Below are positions 27,531-64,000 of a DNA stretch of 64,000 nucleotides, piece after piece. Under the pieces are notes generated by a model that worked only from the letters and a program-made list of their open reading frames with translations, had not been told where the DNA came from and made no database searches. The first letter of the stretch is position 1; the number at the start of each line of letters is the position of its first letter. The translations under genes and the position numbers were made by a program. Source of the stretch: a candidate division TA06 bacterium (GTDB taxonomy: Bacteria > Edwardsbacteria > AC1 > EtOH8); the NCBI GenBank assembly GCA_016235665.1, contig JACRJI010000003.1, forward strand, positions 160,061 to 224,060, in the 5' to 3' direction.

Positions 27531-27570
27531 CCGCCCGCGAAACACGCGAAAGAAGAGACACCATTTATAT

Positions 27571-33602: not shown

Positions 33603-33603
33603 C

Positions 33604-40162: not shown

Positions 40163-41182
40163 ATGGCTGGCAATAAAAGCCCTAATTTGGGCATTATGAT
40201 CATGGTGCTGGCTCTTTCCGCTTTGCTGACGGTGGGAGCGGTGCTGGGAGTGGCTTTGGCTACTTGGCCCGGAAGTGCTGCCCCTGCCAAGCCCGGTGCG
40301 GCCGACACCAAGCTGGAGATGTTTGCCTCTACTGCCAGCCGTCTGACGGGCTTCATATTTTTTACCTATCCAGACGAGGTCAAAGATTACATGAGTCCGG
40401 TGCTGGCCGACCTGAAATCAAAGCTTCCGGCCATCAAGTCCATCACAGTCACCGATCCCGCCGGCCTGATAGTGGGCTCTGACATTGAAGATCAGATAGA
40501 TAAAACTTACCAGCTGCCCAAGGGGGCCAAGCCCCCGGCCGGCGACAAACTGGACATACAGGAGATAACCCCGGGCCAGCTTTTGGTGGCCGTGCCCTCG
40601 GTCTATAATAACAAGATCAAGGGCGGGCTCCGGATGCTGGTGGAATTGCCACAGGCCAAAAGCTCCGGCGGCGGCAAAAGCATGGTGATCATAATAGGGC
40701 TGGTGGCCATGCTGATCGGATTGATCGTTCCCATTGCGGCAGTACCGGCCATGACCAAACAATTGTCTGCTGCTTCGGCAGCCCCGGTTGGTGCGGGAAA
40801 AGCCCAGGCCATGAAGGCCGAAGAATCATCCATCAACACCAGGCTGGAATCCCTGCGCCGGGAGCTGGGCAAGGCCGAAGAGTTGAAGTCAGCGCAGGAC
40901 GGGCTGGCGGCCGAAGTGGAATCATTGCGCAAACAACAGATAGAGGAGAATTACAAACTGGAAGGGCTGAAGAGGGAAGTGACCGAGCTGGGGGTGCAGA
41001 TGGAACAGAGGCGGAAAATGCTGGAGGCCACTCCTGAAGAGCGGCATACCCAGCTGACCCAGGAGGACCGCGACCTGATGCAGAAGATTATCAATCACAA
41101 AAAAGAAGAACTGGCCCTGGCTCAGAAGATCCAGGACATCCGGCGCAAGGTGATAGAGTTGGAAAAACGCACCAAGGCCTAA
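40163..41182 (+). CDS. two-TM membrane protein with long C-terminal coiled coil (possible chain-length/assembly factor)
   Basis: TM1 at residues ~10-35, a 140-aa periplasmic segment, TM2 at ~175-195, and a 140-aa heptad-rich tail. Confidence 0.4.
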   Translation: MAGNKSPNLGIMIMVLALSALLTVGAVLGVALATWPGSAAPAKPGAADTKLEMFASTASRLTGFIFFTYPDEVKDYMSPVLADLKSKLPAIKSITVTDPAGLIVGSDIEDQIDKTYQLPKGAKPPAGDKLDIQEITPGQLLVAVPSVYNNKIKGGLRMLVELPQAKSSGGGKSMVIIIGLVAMLIGLIVPIAAVPAMTKQLSAASAAPVGAGKAQAMKAEESSINTRLESLRRELGKAEELKSAQDGLAAEVESLRKQQIEENYKLEGLKREVTELGVQMEQRRKMLEATPEERHTQLTQEDRDLMQKIINHKKEELALAQKIQDIRRKVIELEKRTKA

Positions 41183-41215
41183 ATAACCACCAAAGCCGGG
41201 ACTACGGAAATATTA

Positions 41216-41251
41216 AAAGACGGGGCAGAGTTAAAATCTCCCCGTCTTTTG
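41216..41251 (+). terminator. rho-independent terminator
   Basis: aaagacgggg-[loop]-ccccgtcttttt. Confidence 0.65.
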
Positions 41252-41342
41252 CTAAAGATTATTTAAGTGGGAATTGGTTTTCCATGGGGACAGAACGATC
41301 CGCACCGGACATTATCCGGCAATAAATCACCATGATGCTTTA

Positions 41343-42635
41343 ATGAAAAAATTAGGCGCCCAAAGTTTGCAGACTTTTTTATACCAGGCCCTGAACATGG
41401 TGCTGGGCCTGGGGTGCGGGGTGATAGTGGCCCGGTACCTGGGCCCTACCGCCAAAGGGGCCATAGCCCTGTACGGGCTGATAGCCGGCTTTTTGGCGCT
41501 GGCTGGCAATCTGGGCCTGGGCCTGGCCAATGTCCATCTGGTCGGCAGCGGCCAGATACTGCCGGGGCGGGCCTGGGCCAATTCCCTTTATATGTCGGTG
41601 CTGACCGGATCCATGTTGGCCGTACTGACCATATTTCTTTTCCCGGTCCTGGGGATCATCGTGAAAAGGCCGGTGGATATGGGCCTTTTGGGCATCGTGT
41701 TGTGCGGGCTTCCATTGCTGCTGCTGTTGGACTACCAGATAAACCTGCTGCGAGGCCTGGGAGATCTGGCGGGATTCAATCAAGCTGGCCTGATGCGACA
41801 GCTTGGCCGGCTACTGGCACTGGGCCTGCTGGTGGCGGCCTTAGGCGGTTTTGTGGCCTCGGCCCTTTGGGCGGCCAATATTTCGATCTTACTGGCGGCG
41901 CTTTGGAGCGGTTTTAGACTTATAAAAAAAACAGCTTTGTCGCTGGTCCCGTCATGGAGCGGTTTAAAAAAATCATTAAGTTATGGGCTGAAGGGCCAGC
42001 CGGGCCAGATAATCCAGTTCTTCAACTACCGGCTGGACCTGATCCTGCTGGCGCTGTTCTGGACCAACCGCGAAGTGGGCATTTATGCCACCGCGGTTTT
42101 TTTAGCCGAGTTGATCTGGTACATTCCGGCGGCGGTCTCCACCGTTTTGTTACCAGCGGTTTCTTCGGCAGATTCGGAGTCCAGGGCCAAAGAGATCAGC
42201 CTTAAGGCCATCCGTCATACCGTATTTTTAAGCCTGACCGCCGCGATCGTCTTGGCGCTTTCGGCCCAGGGGTTGATCAGAGTTCTTTATGGGCCAGCCT
42301 TTGATCCGGCCGTCAGGGCGCTGCAGGTGCTTCTTTTCGGGGTGGTGATGCTGGCTCCAGCCAAGCTGATAGTCAGCCATCTGGCCGGGGTGGGAAAATC
42401 GCAATACGTCAGTTACTTGGCCTTAAGCGGCCTGGGCCTGACCCTGCTGCTGGATGTTATCCTGATCCCCAGGTTCGGGATGATAGGCGCGGCCTGGGCC
42501 TCGGCCGCCGCCTACAGCTGCTCCGGCTTGTTGTCGCTGTTCTGGCTCAAGCGCCATTTAAGGGTGGAGATAGTTCCCAGCCTGATATTGAATAAAGAAG
42601 ACTGGCAGGAATACCGGGAGCTGATCAATCTATGA
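41343..42635 (+). CDS. Wzx-type oligosaccharide flippase (MOP superfamily), copy 1
   Basis: 12-14 TM helices in the polysaccharide-biosynthesis-protein family pattern. Start is the ATG at 41343. Confidence 0.72.
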   Translation: MKKLGAQSLQTFLYQALNMVLGLGCGVIVARYLGPTAKGAIALYGLIAGFLALAGNLGLGLANVHLVGSGQILPGRAWANSLYMSVLTGSMLAVLTIFLFPVLGIIVKRPVDMGLLGIVLCGLPLLLLLDYQINLLRGLGDLAGFNQAGLMRQLGRLLALGLLVAALGGFVASALWAANISILLAALWSGFRLIKKTALSLVPSWSGLKKSLSYGLKGQPGQIIQFFNYRLDLILLALFWTNREVGIYATAVFLAELIWYIPAAVSTVLLPAVSSADSESRAKEISLKAIRHTVFLSLTAAIVLALSAQGLIRVLYGPAFDPAVRALQVLLFGVVMLAPAKLIVSHLAGVGKSQYVSYLALSGLGLTLLLDVILIPRFGMIGAAWASAAAYSCSGLLSLFWLKRHLRVEIVPSLILNKEDWQEYRELINL

Positions 42636-43900
42636 AAAAGGTGCTGCTGCTGACCTCGCTGGAAGTGCCTTTCCGCGGAAATCTGATTGAGGGGCAGTTC
42701 CTGTCTCCGATACTGGGCTCCGGAAATAGCGGGCCCGGACCGGAATTCAGGTATCTGTCTTTGGCTCCGTTCATGTTCTACACCGGGCGCCGCCGGCCTT
42801 TTAAAACATATCTGGCTGGACTGGCCAAGCGGAAGGCGGTAAGATCATTCACCTCCGGCCTGGGCTGCCGGACCGACATCTGGCCGATAGGATTCCCGTT
42901 GTTTCCCCGTGATTTCAATCTGACCCGGGCAAAATATTACCTTTATATGGCATCGGCGCTGGGGCCGTTCTTGGTTTATCTTTTGTTATTTCGTCCTGGT
43001 CTGGTGGTCGCCCGCAGTTATCCGGCGGCGTCGCTGGCCCGGCTGGCCAAGAGATACTTCGGCATCCCATACATCTTTGACCTGAGGGGGATGTACCCCG
43101 AAGAATCGGTCAATGCCGGGATATTTGCCGCCGGCTCGCAGGACCACCGGTTCTGGAAAGGACAGGAAATATCCCTGATATCTCAGGCGGCTTTGAACGT
43201 AGTGGTATCGGAGCCGTTCGCTGAATATCTGAAGACCATTGATCCAGATGCGCCTTCCCTGGTCATCCCCTGCTGCGTGGATCAGCATAAAATAAAATTC
43301 GATCCAGCCCGCCGGGAAGCAGTAAAAAATCAATACGGCCTTAAGGACCGGTTCGTGCTGCTGCACCTGGGATCATTCGGCGCTCCCGGGGACCGGGGGT
43401 TGGTGGCCGCCTACCTGCAGCGCTTTAAAAAAGCAAGGCCGGAAGCTTTTCTGGCGGTGGCTTCGGGCACTCCGGCTTTCGCCCCCTCTATACACCAGGC
43501 ATTCGGGGCCGCCGGACTGAAAGAGGGAGATTACCTGCTGGTCAATCCTTCTTCGACGGAGCAGCTTTCCCAGATGCTGGCTTTGGGAGACGCCGGGCTG
43601 ATCCTGGAACGTAAAGCGTCCAACACCAGGGTCTGCCTGTCGGTCAAGCTGGGGGAATACCTGGCCGCCGGACTGCCGGTGATCTGCACCCCGTTTGTGG
43701 AAGGCGCGGTCCGGCTGGTCAGAGAATATGATTGCGGGCTGGTGGTGGACCCCGAGGCCGGGGAACCGCTGGAAAAGGAAAAGAAATTCATAGAGGATCA
43801 TCCCCGTCTGCGGAAGAACGGTTTTAAACTGGTGGACGAAGTGCTTTCCCTCAACCGCTGCCATGATCTGTGGCGGCAGGCCATCAAACAGACAACATAA
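42632..43900 (+). CDS. GT-B glycosyltransferase (GT4-like C-terminal domain)
   Basis: ATGA overlap with the flippase gene. The C-terminal half matches the Glycos_transf_1 pattern. Confidence 0.5.
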   Translation: MKKVLLLTSLEVPFRGNLIEGQFLSPILGSGNSGPGPEFRYLSLAPFMFYTGRRRPFKTYLAGLAKRKAVRSFTSGLGCRTDIWPIGFPLFPRDFNLTRAKYYLYMASALGPFLVYLLLFRPGLVVARSYPAASLARLAKRYFGIPYIFDLRGMYPEESVNAGIFAAGSQDHRFWKGQEISLISQAALNVVVSEPFAEYLKTIDPDAPSLVIPCCVDQHKIKFDPARREAVKNQYGLKDRFVLLHLGSFGAPGDRGLVAAYLQRFKKARPEAFLAVASGTPAFAPSIHQAFGAAGLKEGDYLLVNPSSTEQLSQMLALGDAGLILERKASNTRVCLSVKLGEYLAAGLPVICTPFVEGAVRLVREYDCGLVVDPEAGEPLEKEKKFIEDHPRLRKNGFKLVDEVLSLNRCHDLWRQAIKQTT

Positions 43901-43912
43901 AAGGGTTGCCTC

Positions 43913-44542
43913 ATGTTCAAAAAAGTGCTGGTGCTGGCGCCCCACACCGACGACGGGGAGTTCGGCTGCGGGGGGTTCATGGCCAAACTGCTGAAGCAGA
44001 AGGCCCAGGTGCATTATGCCGCGTTCTCCTCGGCCGAAAAATCGCTGCCCAAAGGGGCCGATCCCGGCACCCTTAAAAAGGAGCTGCAGGCGGCCCTGGA
44101 CAGCCTGGGGCTTAAGAAACAGCACCGGTACATTTATGATTATCCGGTGCGTGATTTTCCCCAGCACCGCCAGGCCATTCTGGACGACCTGATAAAGTTG
44201 AAAAGAAAGATCGATCCCGGTCTGGTGCTGATGCCCTGTTTCAACGATACCCATCAGGACCATCTGACCATTGCCCAGGAGGGTTTCCGGGCCTTCAAGG
44301 ACCGCACCATCCTGGGTTACGAGATCCCATGGAACAACAAGACCTTCGAGACCCAGTCCTTCGTTCTGCTGGAGCCGAAGCATATCGAAGCCAAGATCCG
44401 GGCCCTCAAGTGCTATAAGTCACAGCTGGGGCGGTTTTACGCCAATCCGGAATTCATCAGGGCGCTGGCCACAACCAGGGGGACCCAGATCGGGGCCAGA
44501 TACGCCGAGGCATTTGAGGTTATACGCTGGGTTCTCAAGTAA
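43913..44542 (+). CDS. PIG-L/LmbE-family N-acetylglucosaminyl deacetylase
   Basis: N-terminal VLVLAPHTDDGEFGCGG and the HxDH motif THQDH. Confidence 0.8.
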   Translation: MFKKVLVLAPHTDDGEFGCGGFMAKLLKQKAQVHYAAFSSAEKSLPKGADPGTLKKELQAALDSLGLKKQHRYIYDYPVRDFPQHRQAILDDLIKLKRKIDPGLVLMPCFNDTHQDHLTIAQEGFRAFKDRTILGYEIPWNNKTFETQSFVLLEPKHIEAKIRALKCYKSQLGRFYANPEFIRALATTRGTQIGARYAEAFEVIRWVLK

Positions 44543-44580
44543 CTTCAATCGGGTTATCTGATGCCAACCACAATAAAAAC

Positions 44581-45267
44581 ATGATCGTCGCCGCTCATCA
44601 ACCGAATTACCTGCCGTGGGCGGGCTATTTTTATAAAATGGCCCGCTGCGATGTCTTTGTGTTCCTGGACAGCGTCCAATACTCACGCACCTCTTACACC
44701 GCCCGCTGCTCCGTCAAACAATGCGACGGTCGGGCCAGCTGGCTTTCGGTGCCGGTGCTCAAAAAGGGCCGGTATTTTCAAAACGTCAACCAAGTGGCCA
44801 TAGACAATCAACGGCCGTGGCAGGCCGAGCACCTGAAAACCCTGGAATCATGCTATTCCCGGACGCCTTATTTCAAAGAATGCTCCTGGCTGCTGGATAT
44901 GGTTTATCGGCAAAATTGGGAGAACCTTTCGCAGTTGAACCGGACGGTGATAGTAAGGCTGGCTGAGTATCTGGGTATAAAAACAAAATTCATAAATTTA
45001 TCCGAATTGAAAATCGAAGGAAAATCCACCGAGATGCTGGTCTCGGCCTGTCTGGCGCTTAAGGCCCGGGAATATATCTCAGGGTCCGGCGGCCAGAACT
45101 ACCTTGATAAGGAACAGTTCCAGCGGGCCGGCATAGGGCTTACCTATACAAAATACCAGCCCCAGCCCTATCCCCAGCTTTGGGGAGAATTCGTGCCCGG
45201 TCTGTCAGTAATGGATATGCTGTTCAACTGCGGTTCGGAAGAAATCAAGAATTTTATCCTCCTTTGA
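44581..45267 (+). CDS. WbqC-like family protein
   Basis: IVAAHQPNYLPWAGYFYKMARCDVFVFLDSVQY is the signature N-terminus of the WbqC-like family. Confidence 0.7.
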   Translation: MIVAAHQPNYLPWAGYFYKMARCDVFVFLDSVQYSRTSYTARCSVKQCDGRASWLSVPVLKKGRYFQNVNQVAIDNQRPWQAEHLKTLESCYSRTPYFKECSWLLDMVYRQNWENLSQLNRTVIVRLAEYLGIKTKFINLSELKIEGKSTEMLVSACLALKAREYISGSGGQNYLDKEQFQRAGIGLTYTKYQPQPYPQLWGEFVPGLSVMDMLFNCGSEEIKNFILL

Positions 45268-45274
45268 GTCTGAT

Positions 45275-46258
45275 ATGAAAATCATCCTGGCCGGAGTGTT
45301 CAATGTTCCCTGGTCCACCAACCATTTCATGAAGAAGCACCTGGAACGGCTGGGGCATCAGGTATTGCCGTTAGAGCTGGACTGGTCGCACCCCCGCCCT
45401 TTGGACATGAACGAAAGGTTGTGGTTCAAACTATCCTCCTCAGTCAAAGCTCAAGCCCTCGGCAAAAAACTGCTGGGACTGGCCCGGTCCCAAGTACCTG
45501 ATGCCGTGATCGTAGTCAAAGGAAAGCGCCTGGACCCGGGGATCACAGAACAACTGGCCCGGCAGATGCTGGTGGCCTACCGGTACATGGATGCTCCGCT
45601 CCACCAATATGTGGCAGGCCATTCCAAAGCCAGCCATCTTGTCTTTGTCACCGGCAAACATCTGGTAGAACCATTATCACTGATCACCGGACAGAACAAT
45701 GTTCACCACCTGCTTGAAGGCTGTGACCCCGAGGTCCATAAACCCGCAGGTTATGATGGCAACTATGCCTGCGATGTGGCTTTTGCGGGGGCTCCGGCTC
45801 CCGACAGGATAAATCTCCTCAGAGCCTGTCGCCAGGCGGGGTATAAGGTAAGGATCTGGGGCCAGCCGGGCTGGCCTCGGGATCTGGGTTACACCGGGAA
45901 TTTCGCCTACGGCGAAGTATTAGCCAAGGTCTGCGCCTCGGCCAAGATCGTCCTGGGAGTCAACAACCGCAACGATCATCCCGGCTACTTTTCCGACCGG
46001 GCTTTGCTGGTACTGGCCTGCCGGGGTTTTCACCTATCCCACTATGTTCCGGGGCTGGAAGACTATTTTGACAACCTCAAACACCTGGCGTGGTTCAAGG
46101 ATCAATCAGAAATGCTGAGAATCATAAAAGAATATATTCATAATGATTCCGGCCGGGCAGGTATTGCCGCCGCCGGGCAGGCATTGGTCTATCAAAAACA
46201 TACCTGGGAAAGATCCATGATATCCATGATGGAAATCATAGAACAGAAGAAACGCTGA
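45275..46258 (+). CDS. CgeB-family glycosyltransferase-like protein
   Basis: CgeB/DUF3880-like N-terminal region plus a GT1-like C-terminal region. Confidence 0.45.
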   Translation: MKIILAGVFNVPWSTNHFMKKHLERLGHQVLPLELDWSHPRPLDMNERLWFKLSSSVKAQALGKKLLGLARSQVPDAVIVVKGKRLDPGITEQLARQMLVAYRYMDAPLHQYVAGHSKASHLVFVTGKHLVEPLSLITGQNNVHHLLEGCDPEVHKPAGYDGNYACDVAFAGAPAPDRINLLRACRQAGYKVRIWGQPGWPRDLGYTGNFAYGEVLAKVCASAKIVLGVNNRNDHPGYFSDRALLVLACRGFHLSHYVPGLEDYFDNLKHLAWFKDQSEMLRIIKEYIHNDSGRAGIAAAGQALVYQKHTWERSMISMMEIIEQKKR

Positions 46259-47229
46259 TGCGCCGGCAACTGCTGGAAATACTGCAATGCCCAAGCTGCC
46301 GTAAAAGCGACTGGCGGCTTGAGTCACTAAAGGAGGACGGCCGGGAGATCCGCCGGGGAAGCGTGGTTTGTCTGGTCTGCCGCAATATCTATCCCATAAA
46401 CAACGGAATTCTGGATTGTCTGGTTAGGTCCCATCCCTGGATAGAGAGCGCTCAAAGAAGCTATCGCCGCTCAAAGGTCTCTACCGCCGATAAATGGAGC
46501 CGGGAACAGCTGGCCCGCCGGGAGCATCTTGAAAATACTTACACCAGCGACAGCCGGATCAACTTTGCCCAGTTGATCGATCGACTGCCGGCCGGAGGTG
46601 GCTGGGCCCTGGACCTGGGCGCCGGGACCGGTTGGACCACTTCTCGGATAGCGGCCCTGGGCTATAAGGGCATTGCCCTGGACATCAGCACAGACAACAA
46701 GCTGGAGCTGGGAGAATGTTTTTTCAGCCCCAATATTTATTTCGACCGGATACTGGCCGACATGAACCGGCTTCCATTCAAAACCCAGTCGCTGTCCCTG
46801 ACGGCCGCCTCGGCCGCTTTGCACCACAGCTATGACCTGAGCGGAGCGGTCCGGGAAATAAGCCGGACGCTGATCCCCGGGGGCCGGCTGGAGCTGGCCA
46901 ATGAGCCGGTGAAGGGGCTGGCCGAGGCCTTTTTGCCCAAGCCCGCCATCGAGGACGAGGATGTCAAGGAAGCCAGCTATTCCCTGGCCGCCTGGCGGGG
47001 GGTCTTGGCCAGTTGCGGATTTGAAAGCAGGGTGTTTTTCCCCCAGAGTATTCAAATGCGGTTGGAGAAAAACAATTTTAATCCCCGGCACAAATTTCTC
47101 GTTGCCGCCCGGGCGGTTTCCGGCCTGGCCAGATCGGCTCCGGGACTGCTGTTCGGTGGATTAAGCCTTAAACTGGGCCATCTGCTGTTCGGACTGCCCT
47201 TGTCGCTTTCGGCCAGAAAGGTTAAATGA
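46258..47229 (+). CDS. Trm112-like zinc-ribbon fused to class I SAM methyltransferase (MTase 1)
   Basis: CPSC ... CLVC ... YPINNGILD zinc ribbon followed by LDLGAGTGW (motif I). TGATG overlap with the upstream gene. Confidence 0.72.
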   Translation: MRRQLLEILQCPSCRKSDWRLESLKEDGREIRRGSVVCLVCRNIYPINNGILDCLVRSHPWIESAQRSYRRSKVSTADKWSREQLARREHLENTYTSDSRINFAQLIDRLPAGGGWALDLGAGTGWTTSRIAALGYKGIALDISTDNKLELGECFFSPNIYFDRILADMNRLPFKTQSLSLTAASAALHHSYDLSGAVREISRTLIPGGRLELANEPVKGLAEAFLPKPAIEDEDVKEASYSLAAWRGVLASCGFESRVFFPQSIQMRLEKNNFNPRHKFLVAARAVSGLARSAPGLLFGGLSLKLGHLLFGLPLSLSARKVK

Positions 47230-49040: not shown

Positions 49041-49121
49041 AAAAATGTGCATAACCAGGCCTATTTTATTGACTTTATAAGCATCTTATGTTAACATAAT
49101 CTGTTATAATTCAAGGTTATA

Positions 49122-50273: not shown

Positions 50274-50276
50274 GCG

Positions 50277-51305: not shown

Positions 51306-51308
51306 CGA

Positions 51309-52160: not shown

Positions 52161-52170
52161 GGGCTGTAAA

Positions 52171-54439: not shown

Positions 54440-55257
54440 ACCAAAACACCCCTCAATTGTGGGACCATCTTTGGAAGATAAATACTCCCGAAGAGGATAT
54501 TTATTGTCTGACCAAAGAGGAGTATACGGTTCGATGGAGAAAGATCAAAGACCGGGTAGAAAAAGTTTTTGGATCATTTTCCGGCCTTAAAGTGATAGAA
54601 ATTGGCGCCGGGGCCGGCACGTATGCCGCCTTAATGGCCAGACAGGGAGCCGAGGTTACCATACTGGATTATTCTGCAAGAGCATTGGATAAAGCCAAAA
54701 TATTTTTCGAGCGAAATCAGGTAAAGGCCAATTTCATTTTACAGGATGCCCTGAATCTTCCTTCCGGGTTGCTGGGCAAGTATGATGTTTCCATGTCCTT
54801 CGGCCTGACCGAGCATTTTTTGGGAGAGCAGAGGCTGGCCATCAACCGGATACATTTAGATGTTTTAAAACCAGGCGGCGTAACTTTTATTTCGGTTCCC
54901 AATAAATACAGCCCGCCATACCGGCTCTATAAATTTGTGGCCCAGCTTACCGGAAAATGGCTGGTGGGCGAAGAATATCCATATTCCCGGCGCGAATTGT
55001 TTGCGCTATGCCGTAAACTGAAAACAGAAGAAGGCCAGGTTTTCGGAGAGTCTTTGAGACAATCCGGATATTTTATGGGGCTTTTAAATCCCTGGCGGCT
55101 GGTCAATAAATTCCTGCTGAAGCGTGAAACCGTTGAAAGTCCTGCAAAAGCAGATATCTCTGACATCAAGCCGGAACGGCCGACCATTTGGGACGATCAT
55201 TTAAGCTATGCGCTGGTGCTGTATGCCAGAAAACCCGCCGCAGCGGCAGACGCATGA
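54436..55257 (+). CDS. class I SAM-dependent methyltransferase (MTase 3)
   Basis: VIEIGAGAGTY motif I and D/E-rich post-I/II motifs. Confidence 0.7.
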   Translation: MNQNTPQLWDHLWKINTPEEDIYCLTKEEYTVRWRKIKDRVEKVFGSFSGLKVIEIGAGAGTYAALMARQGAEVTILDYSARALDKAKIFFERNQVKANFILQDALNLPSGLLGKYDVSMSFGLTEHFLGEQRLAINRIHLDVLKPGGVTFISVPNKYSPPYRLYKFVAQLTGKWLVGEEYPYSRRELFALCRKLKTEEGQVFGESLRQSGYFMGLLNPWRLVNKFLLKRETVESPAKADISDIKPERPTIWDDHLSYALVLYARKPAAAADA

Positions 55258-56357: not shown

Positions 56358-57262
56358 CCTCACCGGTGTCAGACGGCTACAATACCGGAGAAAGGGCCAC
56401 CCTAGTGGTTACTTATATTTGTCCCCGTTGCCGGGAAGGGCTTGAAATTGGGAAAATGGAACTTAAATGCAATCGCTGTCTCGTAAGTTACAGGATCGAA
56501 GAGGGAGTGCCGATCTTATTGGATGAGGAGGGCTGCGGACAATACTATCAATTCTACCAGCAAGATGCCCAAAGGATAGACCATGTTGTTCTGGAAGAAC
56601 TATCCTTTTTCAGGCAAAAGCTGGAAACAGTGGTGGAGCGAATGTTACGGGTAAGCGCCGAAAAAAACGCCGCTATTCTTGACGCCGGATGCGGTGACGG
56701 GGTGTTGTTGAAGATGCTCAAAGAAGCCGGTTTTACAAATGTATGGGGAGCGGATATCTCTCCAAACAGAGCCCGCCGGGCTTGTACGTTAAACGGGGGG
56801 CGGGTGGTGGTCACCGACCTGGAGAAGACCGGCCTAGGCCCGGGTAGTTTCAAAGTTATCATCGCTTCGGAGATACTGGAGCATGTTCCGGATGTGCAGA
56901 TATTTTTGTCCAATTGCCGGGCCATGCTTTGCCCCGGAGGATCGCTGATCATAACCACGCCCTCGGCCATAAGATGGAAGGATTGGCCCCGGAGGCTATG
57001 GTCGGGAAAAAAACTGAAAGACTTTTCAAAGGACCCGGGACACCTGAGGTTTTTGGATAGAAGTGAGCTTTTCAAAATGTGCCGTGCAGCCGGCTTTGAA
57101 AAAACATGGTCGTCAAGCGCATCGATCTTGCCGGAAAGGATCTGGGAATACCTGGAAAGGGATATTCCCGGGGCTTATAGAACCTGCGACCGGTTTTTGC
57201 GCTCCGTGCCGGTGGTAAACCAAGGAGGATCTTTTATCATAGCCCAATTCGCGAAAAAGTAA
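56354..57262 (+). CDS. Trm112-like zinc-ribbon fused to methyltransferase type 11 (MTase 4)
   Basis: CPRC ... CNRC ... EGVPILL zinc ribbon, then ILDAGCGDG (motif I). Confidence 0.72.
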   Translation: MTSPVSDGYNTGERATLVVTYICPRCREGLEIGKMELKCNRCLVSYRIEEGVPILLDEEGCGQYYQFYQQDAQRIDHVVLEELSFFRQKLETVVERMLRVSAEKNAAILDAGCGDGVLLKMLKEAGFTNVWGADISPNRARRACTLNGGRVVVTDLEKTGLGPGSFKVIIASEILEHVPDVQIFLSNCRAMLCPGGSLIITTPSAIRWKDWPRRLWSGKKLKDFSKDPGHLRFLDRSELFKMCRAAGFEKTWSSSASILPERIWEYLERDIPGAYRTCDRFLRSVPVVNQGGSFIIAQFAKK

Positions 57263-57517
57263 ACCCGGCCGGTTTCATTATGAATGTCAGCTAATCCATG
57301 GGCACCCAGGGAAGTGTTTGAGATGTTTTTGATATCGATTTTGCAGATATTACCAAGTCCTGTGCCGCAGAAAACTTGAATGTTCAGCGGAGCAAATAGA
57401 TTCCGATTAGACCACAACGATCAGAATAAACCATGACAGCACATAACACGGATTCGATTTCCCATGCCGGACCGAAGTGTGCTACTGCCATTATCACAGC
57501 CCGATGGGAGAAATCAG

Positions 57518-58270
57518 ATGCCACTGACATTTGAAGAACAACGCTACGAGGTTGAGCATAATCTGGGTTCTCAATATACCCGTCACCAGCTTTCAAAACT
57601 GGCGGCTCTTAGAGGCGGCCGGGTGCTGGACATTGGCTCCCAGACGGCGGATAATTTGGAACCCTTTGAACGGCACGTTCTGTTCGGATTTGACATAGAG
57701 TTTACCAGGGAAGCCAGCCAGCGCAAGAAAAACGTAATATTTGCCAGCGCCACCGTCACCGCCATACCTTTCAAGGATTGTTCTTTTGATGTGATATTGA
57801 TGAACCATGTGCTGGAGCATATCCCTGATGAGGATCTGGCCCTGCAAGAGGCCAAAAGGGTCCTAAAGAATGACGGTTTGCTTTGGCTGGCTTGCCCCAC
57901 CTCATACTCCGGAAAGCTAAAGCCCGGCGAAGCCGAGAGGCACGGGCACGTCAGGGCCTATAACCGAAGATCGCTGATCATGGCGGCTCAAAAGCATTTG
58001 GCCGTTTGCGGCGCTCAAAACCCCGGCAGGGTATTGTGGGCATATCACCATCTGCTGCTGCCGTTTTTTGTATACGTCAACCGGGTCCAAATGAAACTGC
58101 TGGGCGATAAAAAACTGCTTTGGCAAAGATGGTGGATGATAAAAGTGATGAACCCTTTGGTAAGGTGGGTGTCTTTTCCTCTTGAAGACCTGATGGCACC
58201 TATTCCTTGGTGGCCCGGAGACTTATTTTTTGACGGCAATACGGCCTTGATTCTGCGTAAAAATGAATAA
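57518..58270 (+). CDS. class I SAM-dependent methyltransferase type 11 (MTase 5)
   Basis: VLDIGSQ ... VILMNHVLEHIPD. Start is the ATG at 57518 with RBS GGGAGA. An alternative upstream ATG lies at 57464. Confidence 0.62.
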   Translation: MPLTFEEQRYEVEHNLGSQYTRHQLSKLAALRGGRVLDIGSQTADNLEPFERHVLFGFDIEFTREASQRKKNVIFASATVTAIPFKDCSFDVILMNHVLEHIPDEDLALQEAKRVLKNDGLLWLACPTSYSGKLKPGEAERHGHVRAYNRRSLIMAAQKHLAVCGAQNPGRVLWAYHHLLLPFFVYVNRVQMKLLGDKKLLWQRWWMIKVMNPLVRWVSFPLEDLMAPIPWWPGDLFFDGNTALILRKNE

Positions 58271-59276
58271 TCGCAAAAAAGATAAATCTCAGCAGGAGTG
58301 GCTGGGACAACTCCTCCCCCAATATTTAACCCGTCGTTTAGCCTGTACCAATTGTCTGGGCAAGCTCCGGAGCAATTTGGGCAAGTTTGAGTGCCTGGAA
58401 TGCGGCCAAAAATTTGAAATTCAAGACAGCGTGCCGGTATTTTGGAATTCTTCCGACGAGTTCAAACACTTGGAATCAGATTATTATGGACGTGAGGCTA
58501 TTTCCCCCAGCGAATCAAGCGTCTTCAGAAATTATTACCGCTTTACTAAATATGAACGGAAGATAAAAGAAAAAGCCATCTCTTTTTTAAAGCCGCACAG
58601 CCTGATACTTACCCTGGGCGGCGGGGACGGCAGGCACGGGGTATCTTTATGTCAAATGGGGCATGAGGTTTTGGAAACTGATCTAGCTCCCAGGGCCGGT
58701 TTTGCGGCCGCAGTAAAATTCCGGGAAGCTAATTGTAAGCATCCCTGGGCGGTGGCGGCTATTGACGCTGAACAGATACCGTTTGAAGCTGAGACCTTTG
58801 ATGCCGTATACATCTGCGCCGCTCTGCACCAGATGCCGGAGCGGTATAAAGTGGCGGAACAGGTTGGCAGGGTTTTGAAAAAAGGCGGCGTGTTTATTAT
58901 GGCGGCCGAACCCAATGCCTGGTTTTACAAGATCCTCAGGCCATTGGCTCAATTGATGGGGATACGCTCCAAGCAGTTGTGGGGCCAATCAGTGGGCGAT
59001 GAGGCCAACCGGGGAGTGAGTTATATCGATATCGTGAGGTTCTGCGAGAGGGCCGGGCTTGAGCCGTTATATATTCAGCCCAAGTTTTTTTTAACCGGAT
59101 TGCTGTATCAAAGCACCGAAGCTTTTTACAGGTTGCTTCATAAAGATCACCGGGATCGTCTTGGCACCAGGCAGTGGGAAGTGGAACTGTTGACCAGGAT
59201 GGATTTTATAATCGGGCTTTTGCCGGGTATTCAAAGGTATCCGTTTTACTGGACAGTGGTGGCAAAAAAAACATAA
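58263..59276 (+). CDS. Trm112-like zinc-ribbon fused to class I SAM methyltransferase (MTase 6)
   Basis: CTNC ... CLEC ... DSVPVF zinc ribbon, then LTLGGGDG (motif I). Confidence 0.7.
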   Translation: MNNRKKDKSQQEWLGQLLPQYLTRRLACTNCLGKLRSNLGKFECLECGQKFEIQDSVPVFWNSSDEFKHLESDYYGREAISPSESSVFRNYYRFTKYERKIKEKAISFLKPHSLILTLGGGDGRHGVSLCQMGHEVLETDLAPRAGFAAAVKFREANCKHPWAVAAIDAEQIPFEAETFDAVYICAALHQMPERYKVAEQVGRVLKKGGVFIMAAEPNAWFYKILRPLAQLMGIRSKQLWGQSVGDEANRGVSYIDIVRFCERAGLEPLYIQPKFFLTGLLYQSTEAFYRLLHKDHRDRLGTRQWEVELLTRMDFIIGLLPGIQRYPFYWTVVAKKT

Positions 59277-59292
59277 AGAGGTTGAACGCAAC

Positions 59293-59916
59293 ATGCCGTC
59301 GAGCCGATACGAACACATCTCGGATGTCATCTCCATTATTTCCCATCTGGGCTACCAGAGCTTTCTGGATATTGGCTGCGGCTTTGGCCGCTGGGGTTTT
59401 TTGGCCCGGGAGTTCGGAGACATTTATCACGGCCGCTACCAAAAACAAAATTGGCTGGTTAGGATAGAAGGGGTGGAGGTTCACCGGGATTATCTTTGCC
59501 CCCAGCACGAGCATGTTTACGATAAGATACACTTGGGCAAGATTGAGGATAAGCTTCCGGAGCTTCCCAATTATGACATAATATTTGCCGGCGATGTCCT
59601 GGAGCATCTGGAGAAAAGTGCGGCCAGCAATGTCATCGGAGATCTTTTCAGTAAGGCCAACAAAGCGTTACTGGTAGCCATTCCACTGGGTGAGGACTGG
59701 GGCCAGGGCGAGGTTCTGGATAATCCGCATGAGAGGCATAGGTCTGTTTGGAGCGAAAGCGATCTGAAAAAACTCGGGGCCAGGATGGTAAAAATATACT
59801 ACCTTCCTCAAGGATCGCTTTATGCCCTGGCGGTGTGGGCAAAACCAGGATTCAAACTGCTGCCGGCGGTCCGGCTGCAGAACAGAATTAAATGCAAGAT
59901 GGGAATAAGATCTTGA
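59293..59916 (+). CDS. class I SAM-dependent methyltransferase, small (MTase 7)
   Basis: LDIGCGFGRWG motif I and the ..FAGDVLEHLE.. block. Confidence 0.6.
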   Translation: MPSSRYEHISDVISIISHLGYQSFLDIGCGFGRWGFLAREFGDIYHGRYQKQNWLVRIEGVEVHRDYLCPQHEHVYDKIHLGKIEDKLPELPNYDIIFAGDVLEHLEKSAASNVIGDLFSKANKALLVAIPLGEDWGQGEVLDNPHERHRSVWSESDLKKLGARMVKIYYLPQGSLYALAVWAKPGFKLLPAVRLQNRIKCKMGIRS

Positions 59917-61097
59917 GGAATGTTCCGCTGGAGCAATTGAAAAAAGTCATATTGGCCACATCCAGTCCGCTGGGGCAGGAGGCGATAGGCAAAGTGGCTC
60001 AGCATCTCGCCGAAGGGCTGGCCCAGGCCGGCTTACTGTTGAGGTTTTTTCATATCGATGGCCAGCCATTAAAAAATAGCATCAAAAATTCCCGGGCCAT
60101 TGCACCAGTCCGCATTCCCGTTTTGGGCCGGTTTGACTGGGGCCGGAAACTGTTGCTTTCCAGACAAGAGGCATTTTATCAAAAGAAAGTGGCACAGGAG
60201 ATTTGCAGGGGAGAGTCTGGTCTTTATTACGGTTGGGTATTGCAGTCCCAGAAATCATTAGAAGCCTGCCGCTCCCAGGGAATAAAATCAGTACTGGAAT
60301 GCGGCATGATCTATCCCCCCGCCTTTCGGGATCTGCTGGCAGCCGAATTCCAAAGATACAACATTCCGCTTCCCTGGCACCTCGGACCAAAAAGAGTGAC
60401 AGACAGCCTGTACGAACTTGGCTTGGCCGATATCATAGCCGCACCGTCACAATTGGTGGTGGATTCATTCATCGCCAGCGGTTTCGAACCGGATAAATTT
60501 CTGATAATGCCGCCGGGTGTTGATTGCGATTACTTTCATCCTTCAGCTGTTCAGGGAACCAAGGAACCCTGGGCCCTGTACATCGGCCGTTTGGAACTGG
60601 CCAAGGGTGTCCATCATCTGATTACGGCCTGGCAGAGGGTTAAAAAGCCGGGTCGCAGGCTGGTACTCATTGGCAATTTGCAGCCTTGCTTAAAAAACTG
60701 GCTGGACGCTAATCAGCAGATGTTGGATGCCAGCGTGGAGTTGGCAGGGGTTAAAACCGACCTCAGACCATACTTTGAAAAGGCCAGGTTTACAGTGCTG
60801 CCCTCGCTGGCCGATGGATTTGGGATGGCTGTCATGGAAGGAATGGCGGCCGGCCTTCCCGCCATCGTCACTGAAAACTGCGGGGTGAAATCTGCCATTG
60901 ATGATGGCAAAAGCGGGTGGATAGTGCCGGTGGCCGACACGGGCTTATTGGCCCAGAAAATGGGGGTTTTGTTTTCGGATGCAGAACTTTGTTTGCATCT
61001 GGGGAAAAATGCCCGGACTCGGGCGCTGGATTATTCCTGGCACAATTTCAAGGATAAAGCAGTGGAGCTTATCCTTCCGTATCTCCGCAAAAAATAA
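59892..61097 (+). CDS. GT4 glycosyltransferase
   Basis: C-terminal GT1 motif (DGFGMAVMEGMAAGLP). The ATG start overlaps the upstream gene by 25 nt; an in-frame TTG at 59913 is an alternative. Confidence 0.65.
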   Translation: MQDGNKILRNVPLEQLKKVILATSSPLGQEAIGKVAQHLAEGLAQAGLLLRFFHIDGQPLKNSIKNSRAIAPVRIPVLGRFDWGRKLLLSRQEAFYQKKVAQEICRGESGLYYGWVLQSQKSLEACRSQGIKSVLECGMIYPPAFRDLLAAEFQRYNIPLPWHLGPKRVTDSLYELGLADIIAAPSQLVVDSFIASGFEPDKFLIMPPGVDCDYFHPSAVQGTKEPWALYIGRLELAKGVHHLITAWQRVKKPGRRLVLIGNLQPCLKNWLDANQQMLDASVELAGVKTDLRPYFEKARFTVLPSLADGFGMAVMEGMAAGLPAIVTENCGVKSAIDDGKSGWIVPVADTGLLAQKMGVLFSDAELCLHLGKNARTRALDYSWHNFKDKAVELILPYLRKK

Positions 61098-61287
61098 TAG
61101 ATGAGTCATAATAGTTGCCGGACTGATAACCGGGCCGGGCAGCATCTGGTAAGCCAGGGCTTTGACACCGGGCGAATAATACACGCTTAGAGGAAAAATG
61201 CAATCTGTATGGGAACAGGGATTTTGTCTGGCTATAAAAAACAGCTAAAGACGATTTGATGCTGAAAACCGAAAATAATTATATCCA

Positions 61288-62745
61288 ATGAGCAGAGCGA
61301 TTGCCCAGAAAGCCGTGAGCGGCACATTGTGGGTGGCCGGGGCCAACTATATCCGCTTTGCGGTGACGGCAGTAGCCTCGATCATTACCGCCAGGCTGGT
61401 GGCGCCGGAGGCTTTCGGCCAGTATGCCATGGCCGGAGTATTCGTTTTTTTTGCGGCCCGTTTTCAGATGCTGGGATTTGACGAAGCCTTGGTGCACCAG
61501 CCCAACCCTGTTGCCGCCCATTACTCCACCCACCGGCTTTTGAACCTAGGCATTTATTCGGCCATATTATCACTGGCTGTGCCAGGCACCTGGCTGGTGG
61601 CAAAATTCTACGGCCAGACCGTGGGACTGATATTCATCGCCTTAATGGCTGCCAGCGGATCGGCCATATTTTCCCTGACGCCCAGTGTCATATTGCAAAA
61701 AACGATGATGTACAAGGAGATCGCCCTAATCGCCCTGGCTTCCTGTTTGATTTCATCCGGGCTGATGGTTTTTACCGCCTGGTTGGGATGGGGACCCTGG
61801 GCATTAGTGGCGGGAACCGTATCCGGTATTGTGGTAGGATTGGTTGGGAACCTGCTGGTCTGCCCTTTTTCCATAGGGTGGGAATACGACAAAAATATTA
61901 AGAACTGGTTCTTAAGTTACGGCCCTTACTGGCGCTGGTTTTTGGGAATGAGCGCCCAGTCCCTGTCACAGCAGTTTGACAGTTTTACGGTGGGAACAGT
62001 CCGGGGCAACACCGAGCTTGGTTTCTACAGTAAAGCCCTGAATTGGGCGAACCTGCCGACCACCCAGGTGGCCCACGTAATCGCCTCCACAGCCTTTCCC
62101 ACCTATTCCCGCCTGCAAAATAACAGGCCGGCGCTTTCCCAGGCATATCAGAAAGTGCTCTCAGCTGTTTTTCGCATCTCGCTGTGGATCGGACTGGGGA
62201 TGGTGTTTTGCGCCCATGAGGGAACCATTGTTCTGATCGGTGAACGTTGGTTGCCCATAGTAAATATTTTACGCTGGCTGGCTCTGATGATGCTGCTGCG
62301 GCCATTCTACGATCTGGCCGGCGGTTTGCTGGCGGCAGTGGGCCGTCCCAAGGCGGCCATGGATGCCCTGATCTGGCAGGGGGGCTGGATGGTACTGACC
62401 TGTTTTCCCTTTGTTTATCTTTGGGGTAAAGAGGGCGTGGCCATGTGTGTGGCAGTTTCTTCGGCCGTCGGGATCATAGTGGTTTACCGCCAAGTGGTGA
62501 AGGAAGTGGATCTGAATTTCGGTAAAATATTATTAAATCCGGCCCTGGCCGCCGGTGCCGGGCTGGCACTTTCGATGTTGGCGTATCTTCCCAAAACAGA
62601 TTCTCTATTGGTGTTGCTGATATTAAAGGCTGGTTTTTTGTCAATAGGGTACTTGCTTGTCATCTGGCTTTTGGAAAAAGACGAATGGATGGATTTTTGG
62701 CACAAATACATCAGGCCGGCTAAGGCCGAAATGGAGAGTGCTTGA
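61288..62745 (+). CDS. Wzx-type oligosaccharide flippase (MOP superfamily), copy 2
   Basis: 485 aa with ~12-14 TM helices and the polysaccharide-biosynthesis-protein family layout. Confidence 0.7.
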   Translation: MSRAIAQKAVSGTLWVAGANYIRFAVTAVASIITARLVAPEAFGQYAMAGVFVFFAARFQMLGFDEALVHQPNPVAAHYSTHRLLNLGIYSAILSLAVPGTWLVAKFYGQTVGLIFIALMAASGSAIFSLTPSVILQKTMMYKEIALIALASCLISSGLMVFTAWLGWGPWALVAGTVSGIVVGLVGNLLVCPFSIGWEYDKNIKNWFLSYGPYWRWFLGMSAQSLSQQFDSFTVGTVRGNTELGFYSKALNWANLPTTQVAHVIASTAFPTYSRLQNNRPALSQAYQKVLSAVFRISLWIGLGMVFCAHEGTIVLIGERWLPIVNILRWLALMMLLRPFYDLAGGLLAAVGRPKAAMDALIWQGGWMVLTCFPFVYLWGKEGVAMCVAVSSAVGIIVVYRQVVKEVDLNFGKILLNPALAAGAGLALSMLAYLPKTDSLLVLLILKAGFLSIGYLLVIWLLEKDEWMDFWHKYIRPAKAEMESA

Positions 62746-63860
62746 TGCGTATCCTTTTTATAAATTGGAGCCGGGTGGAATACGGGGGGGGCGAAAAACA
62801 TCTGCTGGCCTTGGTCAAGGAAATGAAAAATATGGGGATTGAACCAAGGCTGCTTTGCCCCCCTCAAAGCCCATTAGCGCAAAAGGCTGCTGAAGCTGGA
62901 ATTAATGTATCGGAGATCTGTCTGGATTTTTTTAAAAAAGGCGAACCCCTGCCATATATACGCTCGGTGATTTCGATATCTAAGGAAGTAAAGAAGTTTA
63001 AGCCTGACCTGATACACGCTCAAGGAGCCAACTCACTGCATTGGCTGATGCCTTTTGCTTTATTTGGCAAGATTCCCATATGCTGCAAGCTCCAGGATTT
63101 TGAAGTATCTAACCGGTTTTCCCTTTGGGCCTTGCGTAAGATCCCCGTGGTTTTTACAGATTCGGAGGCTCTAAGAAAACGCGTCATTCTGACTTACAAA
63201 ATCAATGGAAATAAATGCTTGACCATAAGGCCGGGCATTGAACCTTTGACGGAAGCCGCTGCTGAACCGGTCCGGGCCATGCGGAAACGTCTGGGTTTGG
63301 GTCCAAGCGATATTGCCGTTGGCATCTGTAGCCGCATCCATCCCCGTAAGGGCCAGCATCTGTTCCTAAAAGCCGTGGATATTTTGAAGGAAGAAACCTC
63401 CATCAAATGGATCATAGCCGGGGACCGGGAAACGGCCGATCTCAATTACTTGGAGGAACTGGACACATTGATAAATAATTACAGGTTGGATTCCAGGGTG
63501 AGCTTCACTGGTTTTATTTCCGACCTGCCCGTATTCTTAAGCGCCTTGGACATAGTTACGGTTCCCTCGCAGGAAGAACCTTTTGGTTTGATCTCGATTG
63601 ATGCCCAAGCCCAATCCCGCCCGGTGATCGTTTCTAACCAGGGCGGATTGCCGGAGTCGGTGGAAGACGGCCTGACAGGGATCGTCATGCGGAAACTGGA
63701 TGCCATTGAACTGGCCCGCCAGGTGATGGTGCTGGCCAGCGATCCGGAGTATCGGCGCCGCATGGGGCGGGCCGGGCAGAAACGTATCGCCCAGGGGTTC
63801 ACCATCCGGCAAAATGCCTTGAAAATTATTGAGCAGTATAAAATATTGGCCGGGCCATGA
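62742..63860 (+). CDS. GT4 glycosyltransferase
   Basis: GGGEKH N-terminus and a C-terminal EPFGLISIDAQA motif. Confidence 0.75.
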   Translation: MMRILFINWSRVEYGGGEKHLLALVKEMKNMGIEPRLLCPPQSPLAQKAAEAGINVSEICLDFFKKGEPLPYIRSVISISKEVKKFKPDLIHAQGANSLHWLMPFALFGKIPICCKLQDFEVSNRFSLWALRKIPVVFTDSEALRKRVILTYKINGNKCLTIRPGIEPLTEAAAEPVRAMRKRLGLGPSDIAVGICSRIHPRKGQHLFLKAVDILKEETSIKWIIAGDRETADLNYLEELDTLINNYRLDSRVSFTGFISDLPVFLSALDIVTVPSQEEPFGLISIDAQAQSRPVIVSNQGGLPESVEDGLTGIVMRKLDAIELARQVMVLASDPEYRRRMGRAGQKRIAQGFTIRQNALKIIEQYKILAGP

Positions 63861-64000
63861 AAGTTCTTTTTGTTTGTCCGGCTTTCCCACCCAAGGTATG
63901 CGGAGTGGGAAACTATGCCGCTTTGTTGATCAAGGCCTTGACCGGCATGGGACTGGAGATTTCCCTTTTGACCGGAGACGATCCGGTGGATGCTAAGCAG
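63857..64000 (+). CDS. glycosyltransferase, 5' partial (runs off window)
   Basis: MKVLFVCPAFPPKVCGVGNYAALL is a GT4-like N-terminus. ATGA overlap with the upstream gene. Confidence 0.5.
   Translation, partial: MKVLFVCPAFPPKVCGVGNYAALLIKALTGMGLEISLLTGDDPVDAKQ

Follow-up and report, generated by a model that had tools for sequence, protein, structure and literature searches.

What kind of surface structure is made by a locus in which seven methyltransferases stand among glycosyltransferases and flippases? The question is raised by a 64,000 nt stretch of DNA from a candidate division TA06 bacterium (assembly GCA_016235665.1, contig JACRJI010000003.1, positions 160,061 to 224,060), hereafter the window, where the + strand between 40163 and 64000 holds 23 closely packed co-directional genes and the 5' start of a 24th. 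By Pfam and NCBIfam matches these genes comprise seven class I S-adenosylmethionine (SAM) methyltransferases, here called M1 to M7, two Wzx flippases, a PIG-L family protein, a WbqC-like protein, nucleotide-sugar genes and eight complete glycosyltransferase (GT) genes, namely six GT4, one Glyco_trans_1_2 and one GT2-GT9 fusion; a ninth glycosyltransferase, also GT4, is cut by the window end. This agrees with a first-pass annotation made from the letters alone, which had counted roughly nine glycosyltransferases. The locus is a real surface-glycan gene cluster; it does not stand for a new kind of system but is an unusual member of a kind already known. The enrichment in methyltransferases is far above chance, with seven in 23 locus genes as compared to at least one (26039-26809) among the 21 larger open reading frames (ORFs) scanned in the 40 kb upstream.

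We consider it fairly probable that the locus directs Wzx/Wzy-type assembly of a heavily O-methylated repeat unit. The region is not one unit but a conserved module (module 1, 40163-50273) followed by a swappable cassette (module 2, from 50277 to beyond the window). For the sequence past the window end we used a Logan contig (L001), which reaches 1.8 kb further. The genes are packed as in an operon. Overlaps are found at 11 of the 22 gene junctions, by ATGA and TGATG as had been noted and also by 8 bp and 25 bp, and in module 2 the methyltransferase genes alternate with GT genes to which they are coupled in translation. Only five spacers are longer than 40 bp, namely one of 240 bp 5' of the first gene and others of 91, 81, 255 and 190 bp.

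Comparison of the two modules

Module 1 is found in the same order adjoining batA in a TA06 metagenome-assembled genome (MAG), L002, with 70-92% amino acid identity, and in the Edwardsbacteria-like loci L004, L011 and L014 with 30-80% identity. In these relatives genes for Wza/SLBB and Wzc follow GT4b, the last gene of module 1; SLBB and GNVR/AAA_31 genes lie between the modules in L011 and L014, and a Poly_export gene lies after module 1 in L002 and L004.

The cassette of module 2 was detected in L008 and L009 (82% nucleotide identity over window positions 52824-57268 and 57524-60726), in L010, a 706-kb JGI contig (54-79% amino acid identity), and in L012 on a 1.21-Mb contig (49-94%). Its conserved order is deoxy-hexosamine genes, M2, GT4, M3, GT4, a variable slot, M5, M6, M7, GT4, Wzx, GT4s and Wzy, and the five methyltransferases M2, M3, M5, M6 and M7 form a core present in L008/L009, L010 and L012. 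As this core is kept in at least three other genomes, the methyltransferase density is genuine and is maintained by selection. In the window the slot is occupied by M4. L008/L009 have M4 and a Methyltransf_21 gene there, whereas L010 and L012 carry other methyltransferases in its place, of the TylF family in L010 and Methyltransf_21 in L012; M4 has a single close homolog. With two additional methyltransferases ahead of its Wzx gene, L012 reaches eight per cassette, compared to six in the window, at least seven in L008 and six in L010. The density had been called unusual for a locus of this kind. Within the cassette family it is routine, at six to eight per copy, while it remains true that not all relatives have it at this site. 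A homolog of M6 (54% identity) was also seen beside a GT4 gene in a UBP2 MAG (L013).

The 255-bp spacer at 57263-57517 had been proposed as a boundary between sub-operons. It is not such a signal but the empty state of a slot that holds Methyltransf_21 or TylF genes in relatives: the blastn alignment breaks at exactly 57268/57524, and at this site L008 has 965 bp with a 270-aa Methyltransf_21 gene. We also considered the spacer as a decayed gene and rejected this, as it has no similarity to the L008 Methyltransf_21 gene and is a clean indel without remnant.

The histories of the two modules were compared within one molecule, as the 1.21-Mb contig carries both L014 (module 1) and L012 (module 2). 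Between the window and this contig the mean amino acid identity is 46% for module 1 (35% for Wzx1) and 73% for module 2, where Wzx2 reaches 94%, M7 85%, M5 83% and M6, M3 and GT4c 81%, and where the lowest values are those of the FnlA-like dehydratase (55%), GT4e (54%) and the RmlD-like reductase (49%). In L002, a closer relative within TA06, the 8 kb seen past module 1 do not contain module 2 but a different set of genes, with Wza, AsnB, Methyltransf_21 and Methyltransf_23. This discordance, along with the lack of module 2 in the L002 stretch, points to module 2 as a cassette laterally exchanged between deeply divergent lineages; the direction of the transfer is inferred. Modular acquisition had earlier been suggested on the basis of GC content, and the comparative data support it much more strongly. 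The GC contrast itself is real but modest, with module 2 near 50.0% (53000-64000), 40163-53000 at 54.5% and the first 40 kb of the window (1-40000) at 55.8%. The size of the contrast had been overstated, however: positions 53300-56300 have 48.6% and 58300-59300 have 49.3%, which makes about 50% against 55-56%, or 5-6 points, and not 42-47% against about 60%. Edwardsbacteria-like loci have 48.5-51%.

As a separate observation, the 6.4-kb contig L009 (GCA_003486825.1, DNFY01000358.1), with its module 2 copy of about 82% nucleotide identity, has been assigned to a MAG labelled 'Desulfobacterales bacterium'. Either the contig was mis-binned or the cassette has been transferred once more.

The methyltransferases and their zinc knuckles

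M1 (46258-47229) is the only methyltransferase of module 1, and matches Methyltransf_11 with 53.6 bits. The six of module 2 are M2 (52569-53288, Methyltransf_24, PF13578, 97 bits; 66-80% identical in L008, L011 and L014), M3 (54436-55257, Methyltransf_25 and 23, 53 and 46.8 bits; 67-81% in relatives), M4 (56354-57262, Methyltransf_23, 82.7 bits), M5 (57518-58270 in an ORF that opens at 57464, Methyltransf_23 and 11, 61.7 and 57 bits; 54-85% in relatives), M6 (58263-59276, Methyltransf_11, 52.5 bits) and the small M7 (59293-59916). M1 to M6 are above the Pfam gathering cut-offs of these families, and only M7 falls below, with 24.7 bits to Methyltransf_12 where the cut-off is 30. M7 was confirmed at the level of its family, for which an exhaustive HMMER search gave 2007 cluster representatives: 28 of 41 sampled members match Methyltransf_23 (best E 2e-10), and the family profile matches the bacterial Hen1 methyltransferase domains 3jwi and 3jwg at E 4e-9. 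The seven methyltransferases first proposed are thus all upheld. Read from the translations, SAM motif I is LDLGAGTG in M1, IEIGAGAG in M3, LDAGCGDG in M4, LTLGGGDG in M6 and LDIGCGFG in M7.

Throughout the M7 family residues G28, G30, G32, E104, H105 and H149 do not vary, and D101 is nearly invariant. The E-H...H triad would resemble the Hen1 metal site that binds a vicinal diol, and the pattern suggests that M7 may be a metal-dependent methyltransferase gripping such a diol. Many members of the M7 family are fused into proteins of 600-1200 aa.

A recent expansion of paralogs was rejected as the origin of the methyltransferases. Pairwise identity among the seven is at most 30% over short partial alignments, except for one 48-residue stretch at 33%, so these are seven distinct enzymes; between the methyltransferase domains of M1, M4 and M6 it does not exceed 24%. 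The nearest solved structure of M2 is 6g7d (E 3e-22), which we take to be MeT1, the 1-O-methyltransferase of mycobacterial methylmannose polysaccharide (MMP). For M1 and M6 the nearest solved relatives are AtmM/RebM ('D-glucose O-methyltransferase'), MitM and TleD, and the AtmM/RebM sugar O-methyltransferases are the top Foldseek matches of the M6 model as well as a sequence neighbour of M1. It is because the nearest solved relatives are sugar or small-molecule O-methyltransferases, because the slot of L010 holds a TylF gene and because M7 is Hen1-like that we read the products as O-methylated sugars.

Three of the methyltransferases had been described as fusions to a Trm112-like zinc ribbon. 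M1 (knuckle at residues 1-55), M4 (CPRC...CNRC, residues 23-42) and M6 (C28, C31, C44 and C47) all have CxxC...CxxC followed by a (Y/F)xI..G(V/I)P strand. M1 matches the Pfam Trm112p model (PF03966) with 30.7 bits for the full protein and 35.5 bits for the domain alone, above the cut-off of 22, and its N-terminus matches two Trm112 chains of known structure, 6zxw_H (E 1.8e-8) and 6f5z_C. Two results count against such an assignment for the others: for M4 Trm112p is the top match and yet stays below the cut-off at 18.5 bits (E 0.0019), and M6 on its own matches generic zinc-ribbon Pfam models and not Trm112p, a homolog of it reaching 12.4 bits. The ribbons of M4 and M6 could nevertheless be linked to that of M1 profile to profile. 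By hhalign, M6 matches M1 with 95.8% (E 7e-9), M4 matches M1 with 93.5% (E 2e-7) and M4 matches M6 with 97.8% (E 1e-12), and the profile of the M6 family reaches the bacterial Trm112-like NMR structures 2kpi and 2js4, both cited as bacterial Trm112 orthologs in a review (PMC5372719).

The ribbons are also conserved. The CPSC...CLVC of M1 is kept in most of 38 aligned homologs, is missing from N-terminally truncated calls and reads CSVC in P0013; the 41 M1 orthologs come from TA06 or Edwardsbacteria-like sources or metagenomes only. The CPRC...CNRC of M4 is identical in L008 and L009. Among 17 homologs of M6, with identities as low as 46%, the start Met, the four cysteines and P58 do not change. 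Compared to its 82%-identical copy, the M4 ribbon has 8 synonymous and 3 non-synonymous codon changes with every Cys kept, which marks purifying selection. The ribbons are translated and under selection. An AF2 model of M6 (pLDDT 78, pTM 0.81) has residues 11-60 at pLDDT 85-93, with a helix at 18-23 and strands at 34-38, 41-44, 50-54 and 57-60; for this one protein, the predicted secondary structure is compatible with a zinc-knuckle fold. Taken together, the profile and conservation data argue that the three ribbons are real, conserved, homologous to one another and of Trm112 type.

The knuckle would most likely act in cis in M1, M4 and M6 as Trm112 does in trans, that is by stabilising the Rossmann domain and SAM binding. 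An alternative is that the ribbons direct the enzymes to a substrate or to the membrane, in the manner of the Cys4 domain of RlmA(I), or that they are zinc fingers with a purely structural role. Foldseek aligns the entire M6 model, together with its ribbon, to RlmA(I) 1p91, in which a zinc domain precedes the methyltransferase domain (339 columns, TM 0.43), and the generic zinc-ribbon matches of M6 are in line with this alternative. It does not account as well for the M1 score above the Trm112p cut-off and the solved Trm112 chains, for the profile homology of the M4 and M6 ribbons to that of M1, for the match of the M6 family to 2kpi and 2js4, or for the strand after the second CxxC, a Trm112 signature present in all three proteins. 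We hence regard it as unlikely.

The function of bacterial Trm112-type knuckles was unknown according to the review of 2017 (PMC5372719). The same review (section 3) notes bacterial Trm112-methyltransferase fusions and a conserved methyltransferase-binding face, so the architecture is already known; in the literature searched we found no such fusion in a glycan context. It should be noted that public annotation hides the feature. NCBI starts M4 at a GTG 51 codons downstream (residue 52; 251 aa), which removes the knuckle (56354-56506), and starts M6 38 codons downstream (residue 39; 299 aa), which removes half of it (58263-58376), while the longer forms are retained for some copies by other gene callers (Logan, JGI). 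With the knuckle cut from two of the three genes, surveys of deposited proteins will undercount this architecture.

In E. coli K-12 the stand-alone PF03966 gene ycaR (L015, NC_000913.3 970673-971598) is found downstream of msbA-lpxK and shares 4 bp with the start of kdsB, the gene for CMP-Kdo synthetase. This envelope-glycolipid neighbourhood echoes the glycan context of the fused knuckles, as an anecdotal and weak pointer. Further, we speculate, very tentatively and with more doubt than confidence, that bacterial Trm112-type knuckles are built-in or partner activators of methyltransferases for envelope glycans and not for translation, and at the same time that the cassette yields a near-permethylated hydrophobic polysaccharide and is passed among uncultured lineages of deep divergence, entering a single fixed site by batA.

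Predicted assembly and rival readings

Module 1, a unit fixed next to batA, probably directs the synthesis of a separate oligosaccharide that is conserved in the lineage and bears a single methyl group. Module 2 would behave as a serotype-like cassette and begins with genes for a nucleotide sugar. These are a PseB/FnlA/CapE-like UDP-GlcNAc 4,6-dehydratase (50277-51305; Polysacc_synt_2, 327 bits), which stays below the equivalog cut-offs of both PseB (345 bits, cut-off 408) and FnlA (294 bits, cut-off 730), an RmlD-like sugar-nucleotide reductase (51309-52160; RmlD_sub_bind, 158 bits) and a cupin encoded on its own, which corresponds to the C-terminal domain of WbjC/CapF (52171-52572; Polysacc_synt_C, 100.7 bits; a match to positions 254-368 of 372 in NF047837, E 3e-21). 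The resemblance of the three to the FnlA/B/C pathway is at family level only. They may produce a UDP-2-acetamido-2,6-dideoxy-L-hexose; no gene for a UDP-2-epimerase (CapG/FnlC) was found at the locus, and the product may therefore stop at the 6-deoxy-L-talose configuration (L-PneNAc) or differ.

Five GT4 enzymes of module 2 would then assemble a lipid-linked repeat unit on the cytoplasmic side of the membrane: GT4c (53288-54439; Glycos_transf_1, 124 bits, with a TGATG overlap and its start taken from the Logan gene call), GT4d (55254-56357; Glyco_trans_1_4, 38 bits; 63-83% identical in relatives), GT4e (59892-61097; Glycos_transf_1, 100 bits), GT4f (62745-63860; Glycos_transf_1, 108 bits) and GT4g, of which the 5' end lies at 63857-64000 (386 aa in all by the L001 gene calls). 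The six soluble methyltransferases of module 2 are predicted to O-methylate sugar hydroxyls of the growing unit or of nucleotide-sugar precursors, with an outcome of about one methyl group per sugar; heavy O-methylation of the glycan is a prediction. Wzx2 (61288-62745; Polysacc_synt_3, 168.3 bits; 79% identical to L010) would flip the unit, and a Wzy just past the window would polymerise it. The first-pass annotation recognised neither a WbaP/WecA initiating transferase nor a Wzy polymerase. This holds inside the window, while about 1 kb past its end there is a polytopic membrane protein (L001 13699-14490) that is 70% identical to an L010 gene with PF04932 Wzy_C, and the L012 ortholog matches Wzy_C with 45 bits.

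Several points weigh against this proposal. Matches to an initiating phosphoglycosyltransferase (Bac_transf, or Glycos_transf_4, PF00953) are lacking among the 24 genes of the locus, among the 21 larger ORFs scanned upstream and in the annotations of 20-kb stretches of L002, L004, L010, L011 and L014, and such an enzyme may be encoded elsewhere. The export and chain-length genes Wza/OPX and Wzc/PCP are not in the window. The methyltransferase families present here also methylate lipids, small molecules, proteins and RNA, so sugar substrates are a likely reading of the homologies and not a direct one. The 6g7d relative of M2, taken to be MeT1, acts on a free reducing-end 1-OH, and such a reaction cannot apply to a lipid-linked unit. 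Finally, all sequences compared come from MAGs or metagenome contigs, where binning errors could inflate the taxonomic distance, although the discordance itself lies within single contigs.

The proposal must also be weighed against other targets of methylation. Several of the enzymes could act on groups other than hydroxyls, giving N-methylated amino sugars freed by PIG-L, uronate methyl esters, methyl-phosphate or phosphoramidate, or a methylated lipid anchor. The PIG-L gene belongs to the same co-directional module as M1 and precedes it by three genes, Methyltransf_11, 12, 23 and 25 leave the substrate unspecified, and further PDB neighbours include the phosphoethanolamine N-methyltransferases 4krh and 5wp5 and the sarcosine/dimethylglycine N-methyltransferase 2o57. 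The top neighbours of M1 and M6 are however the sugar O-methyltransferases AtmM/RebM; M2 and the TylF alternative of the slot belong to O-methyltransferase families, the M7 family resembles the 2'-O-methyltransferase Hen1, and we saw no genes for uronic acids or phospho-substituents among the locus genes. It seems rather unlikely, then, that several of the enzymes act in this way.

It was also suggested that methyl groups cap the chain. On this reading, for which WbdD in E. coli O8/O9a is the model, the methyltransferase density would reflect control of chain length and not methylation throughout the repeat unit. WbdD-type capping belongs to ABC-transporter-dependent pathways. The locus has two Wzx and a Wzy and lacks Wzm/Wzt; neither an ABC-transporter nor a kinase domain was found in any locus gene by the Pfam/NCBIfam scan, none of the methyltransferases has a kinase or coiled-coil ruler domain, and a single cap does not need six or seven divergent enzymes. 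Even with the M2 relative 6g7d, taken to be MeT1, being a terminal (reducing-end) 1-O-methyltransferase of the mycobacterial polysaccharide, capping is improbable, and for the want of an ABC transporter and a kinase we reject it as the main explanation.

That the locus is no surface glycan locus at all but a conflict or defence island, or a cluster for a glycosylated natural product, is scarcely credible: GT4c, GT4e and GT4f do match the Pfam model 'GT4-conflict' (E 3e-6 to 5e-12), the methyltransferase domains match the PADLOC model mad2 (E down to 8e-20) and RebM, AtmM, MitM and TleD are natural-product enzymes, but the GT4-conflict matches are always much weaker than those of the same genes to the generic Glycos_transf_1, the PADLOC matches cover only the Rossmann core of mad2 in five methyltransferases with no GT or other defence component (on which ground the defence reading was rejected), there are no polyketide synthase, non-ribosomal peptide synthetase or terpene genes, and the two Wzx, the Wzy_C protein, the nucleotide-sugar genes and the Wza/Wzc of syntenic relatives define a polysaccharide pathway.

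The lead gene of module 1 (40163-41182) encodes a 339-aa protein with two transmembrane segments and a long coiled-coil tail; it has no Pfam or NCBIfam match, recurs at the same position with 90% identity in L002 and with 42-43% in L004, L011 and L014, and may be a chain-length or scaffold protein. Wzx1 (41274-42635; Polysacc_synt_3, 61.8 bits, Polysacc_synt, 35.8 bits) probably starts at the ATG at 41343, and its L002 homolog is called at 430 aa. It is followed by GT4a (42632-43900; Glyco_trans_4_4 and Glyco_transf_4; 50-52% identical in L004, L011 and L014), by the PIG-L family de-N-acetylase (43913-44542; PF02585, 62.5 bits), the best-conserved gene of the module with 77-80% identity in distant relatives, and by the WbqC-like protein (44581-45267; PF08889, 260 bits), so that the two flippases, the PIG-L and the WbqC-like gene of the first description all hold. 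The Glyco_trans_1_2 gene (45275-46258; PF13524, 81 bits) has a GT2 gene in its place in Edwardsbacteria-like loci. After M1 come the GT2 and GT9 (heptosyltransferase-like) fusion (47226-49040; Glycos_transf_2 at residues 6-109, 69.8 bits, and Glyco_transf_9 at 384-572, 105.6 bits) and GT4b (49122-50273; Glycos_transf_1, 99.6 bits). Module 1 also varies by insertion. The Edwardsbacteria-like versions (L004-L006, L011 and L014) have a radical-SAM/SPASM gene between Wzx and GT4, and that of L014 also has an asparagine-synthase-like gene, both of them lacking in the TA06 versions; in L002 a PMT_2-like membrane protein and a 23S_rRNA_IVP gene are inserted.

Promoter and terminator scans of the locus gave counts no higher than the shuffled expectation, and no terminator was detected in the gaps at 57263 and 61098. 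A promoter-like TTGACA-18-AATAAT lies at 39942-39971, 5' of the first gene, as the sole near-consensus match. The 500-bp stretch of lowest GC in the region (49000-49499, 39%) falls where an 81-bp gap separates GT4b from the GT2-GT9 fusion, and within this stretch there is a promoter-like, TG-extended TTGACT-17-TAACAT at 49069-49097.

The genes upstream of the locus include a hybrid-cluster protein, a Tol-Pal-like cluster, BatA and PMT_2/TPR proteins, a set that fits an anaerobic diderm. The Tol-Pal-like cluster (24845-30298) has a MotA/ExbB-type TolQ, a PD40 TolB and a YfiO/TPR protein, and the extra class I methyltransferase at 26039-26809 lies inside it. A phosphogluco/phosphomannomutase gene (30578-31924) precedes two tandem large proteins (31932-35394), both of which carry a PMT_2 domain, of the dolichyl-phosphate-mannose glycosyltransferase type, at the N-terminus and TPR repeats at the C-terminus. 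Together these may be a protein or lipid glycosylation system near the glycan locus.

Relation to known systems

Three features go beyond what is routine, namely the five-methyltransferase core with a swappable slot, the discordance of the modules and the three divergent Trm112-knuckle methyltransferases in a glycan context. If the proposed assembly is right, uncultured bacteria of sediment and groundwater would be coated with a polysaccharide bearing about one methyl ether per sugar, and such a surface would differ markedly from ordinary O-antigens in hydrophobicity and in recognition by phages and grazers. The cassette would be a compact set of five conserved and several interchangeable glycan O-methyltransferases paired with GTs, useful for glyco-engineering, and the three fusions would give a family of unknown bacterial function a concrete and testable biochemical context.

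For the nucleotide sugar, the known pathway to UDP-L-FucNAc is that of CapE/CapF/CapG in S. aureus, WbjB/WbjC/WbjD and FnlA/B/C. The present genes share with it a Polysacc_synt_2 dehydratase, a short-chain dehydrogenase/reductase and a cupin that matches the C-terminus of WbjC/CapF. They differ from it in that reductase and cupin are separate genes and that the 2-epimerase is not present.

Among single methyltransferases, RebM/AtmM and TylF, which modify the sugars of natural products, are closest: RebM/AtmM rank first in structural similarity to the M6 model, and a TylF gene occupies the M4 slot of L010. They act on glycosylated small molecules, however, at 15-21% identity and without a zinc knuckle. 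The function of MeT1, the 1-O-methyltransferase of MMP, has been described (PMC9883506). M2 shares the Methyltransf_24 fold with 6g7d, and the predicted product would, like MMP and methylglucose lipopolysaccharide (MGLP), be methylated on most residues. In contrast to module 2, MeT1 acts on a free reducing end, and MMP and MGLP are cytoplasmic, have no lipid-carrier link and no need of Wzx/Wzy, and are made by a gene set that is otherwise unrelated.

With regard to the knuckles, an archaeal subfamily is known in which an N-terminal Trm112-like zinc knuckle is fused to a methyltransferase (PMC5372719, section 3). M1, M4 and M6 resemble these fusions and the Trm112-methyltransferase holoenzymes of eukaryotes and archaea in the Cys4 zinc site and beta-strand motif N-terminal to a class I methyltransferase, and in partners drawn from different methyltransferase families. 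They differ in context, as the known partners methylate tRNA, rRNA and release factors and the present ones stand in a polysaccharide locus.

The closest relatives as whole systems are the Wzx/Wzy clusters for O-antigen, capsule and exopolysaccharide. From these the locus is set apart by its host, an uncultured candidate phylum without known glycan chemistry, by the three methyltransferases with a Trm112-type knuckle, by the lack of an initiating transferase, Wza and Wzc in the window, and by its six to eight methyltransferases per cassette, about one per GT. Methyl-rich glycans have precedents: the wre genes for the O-antigen of Rhizobium etli CE3 reportedly provide 2-O-methyl- and 2,3,4-tri-O-methylfucose and 3-O-methyl-6-deoxytalose, and mycobacterial glycopeptidolipid loci are said to hold four to five methyltransferases. 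What the locus has in common with Wzx/Wzy clusters is its basic plan, with coupled, co-directional GT, Wzx, Wzy and nucleotide-sugar genes in which class I methyltransferases are embedded, and a cassette that differs between relatives at a fixed chromosomal site.

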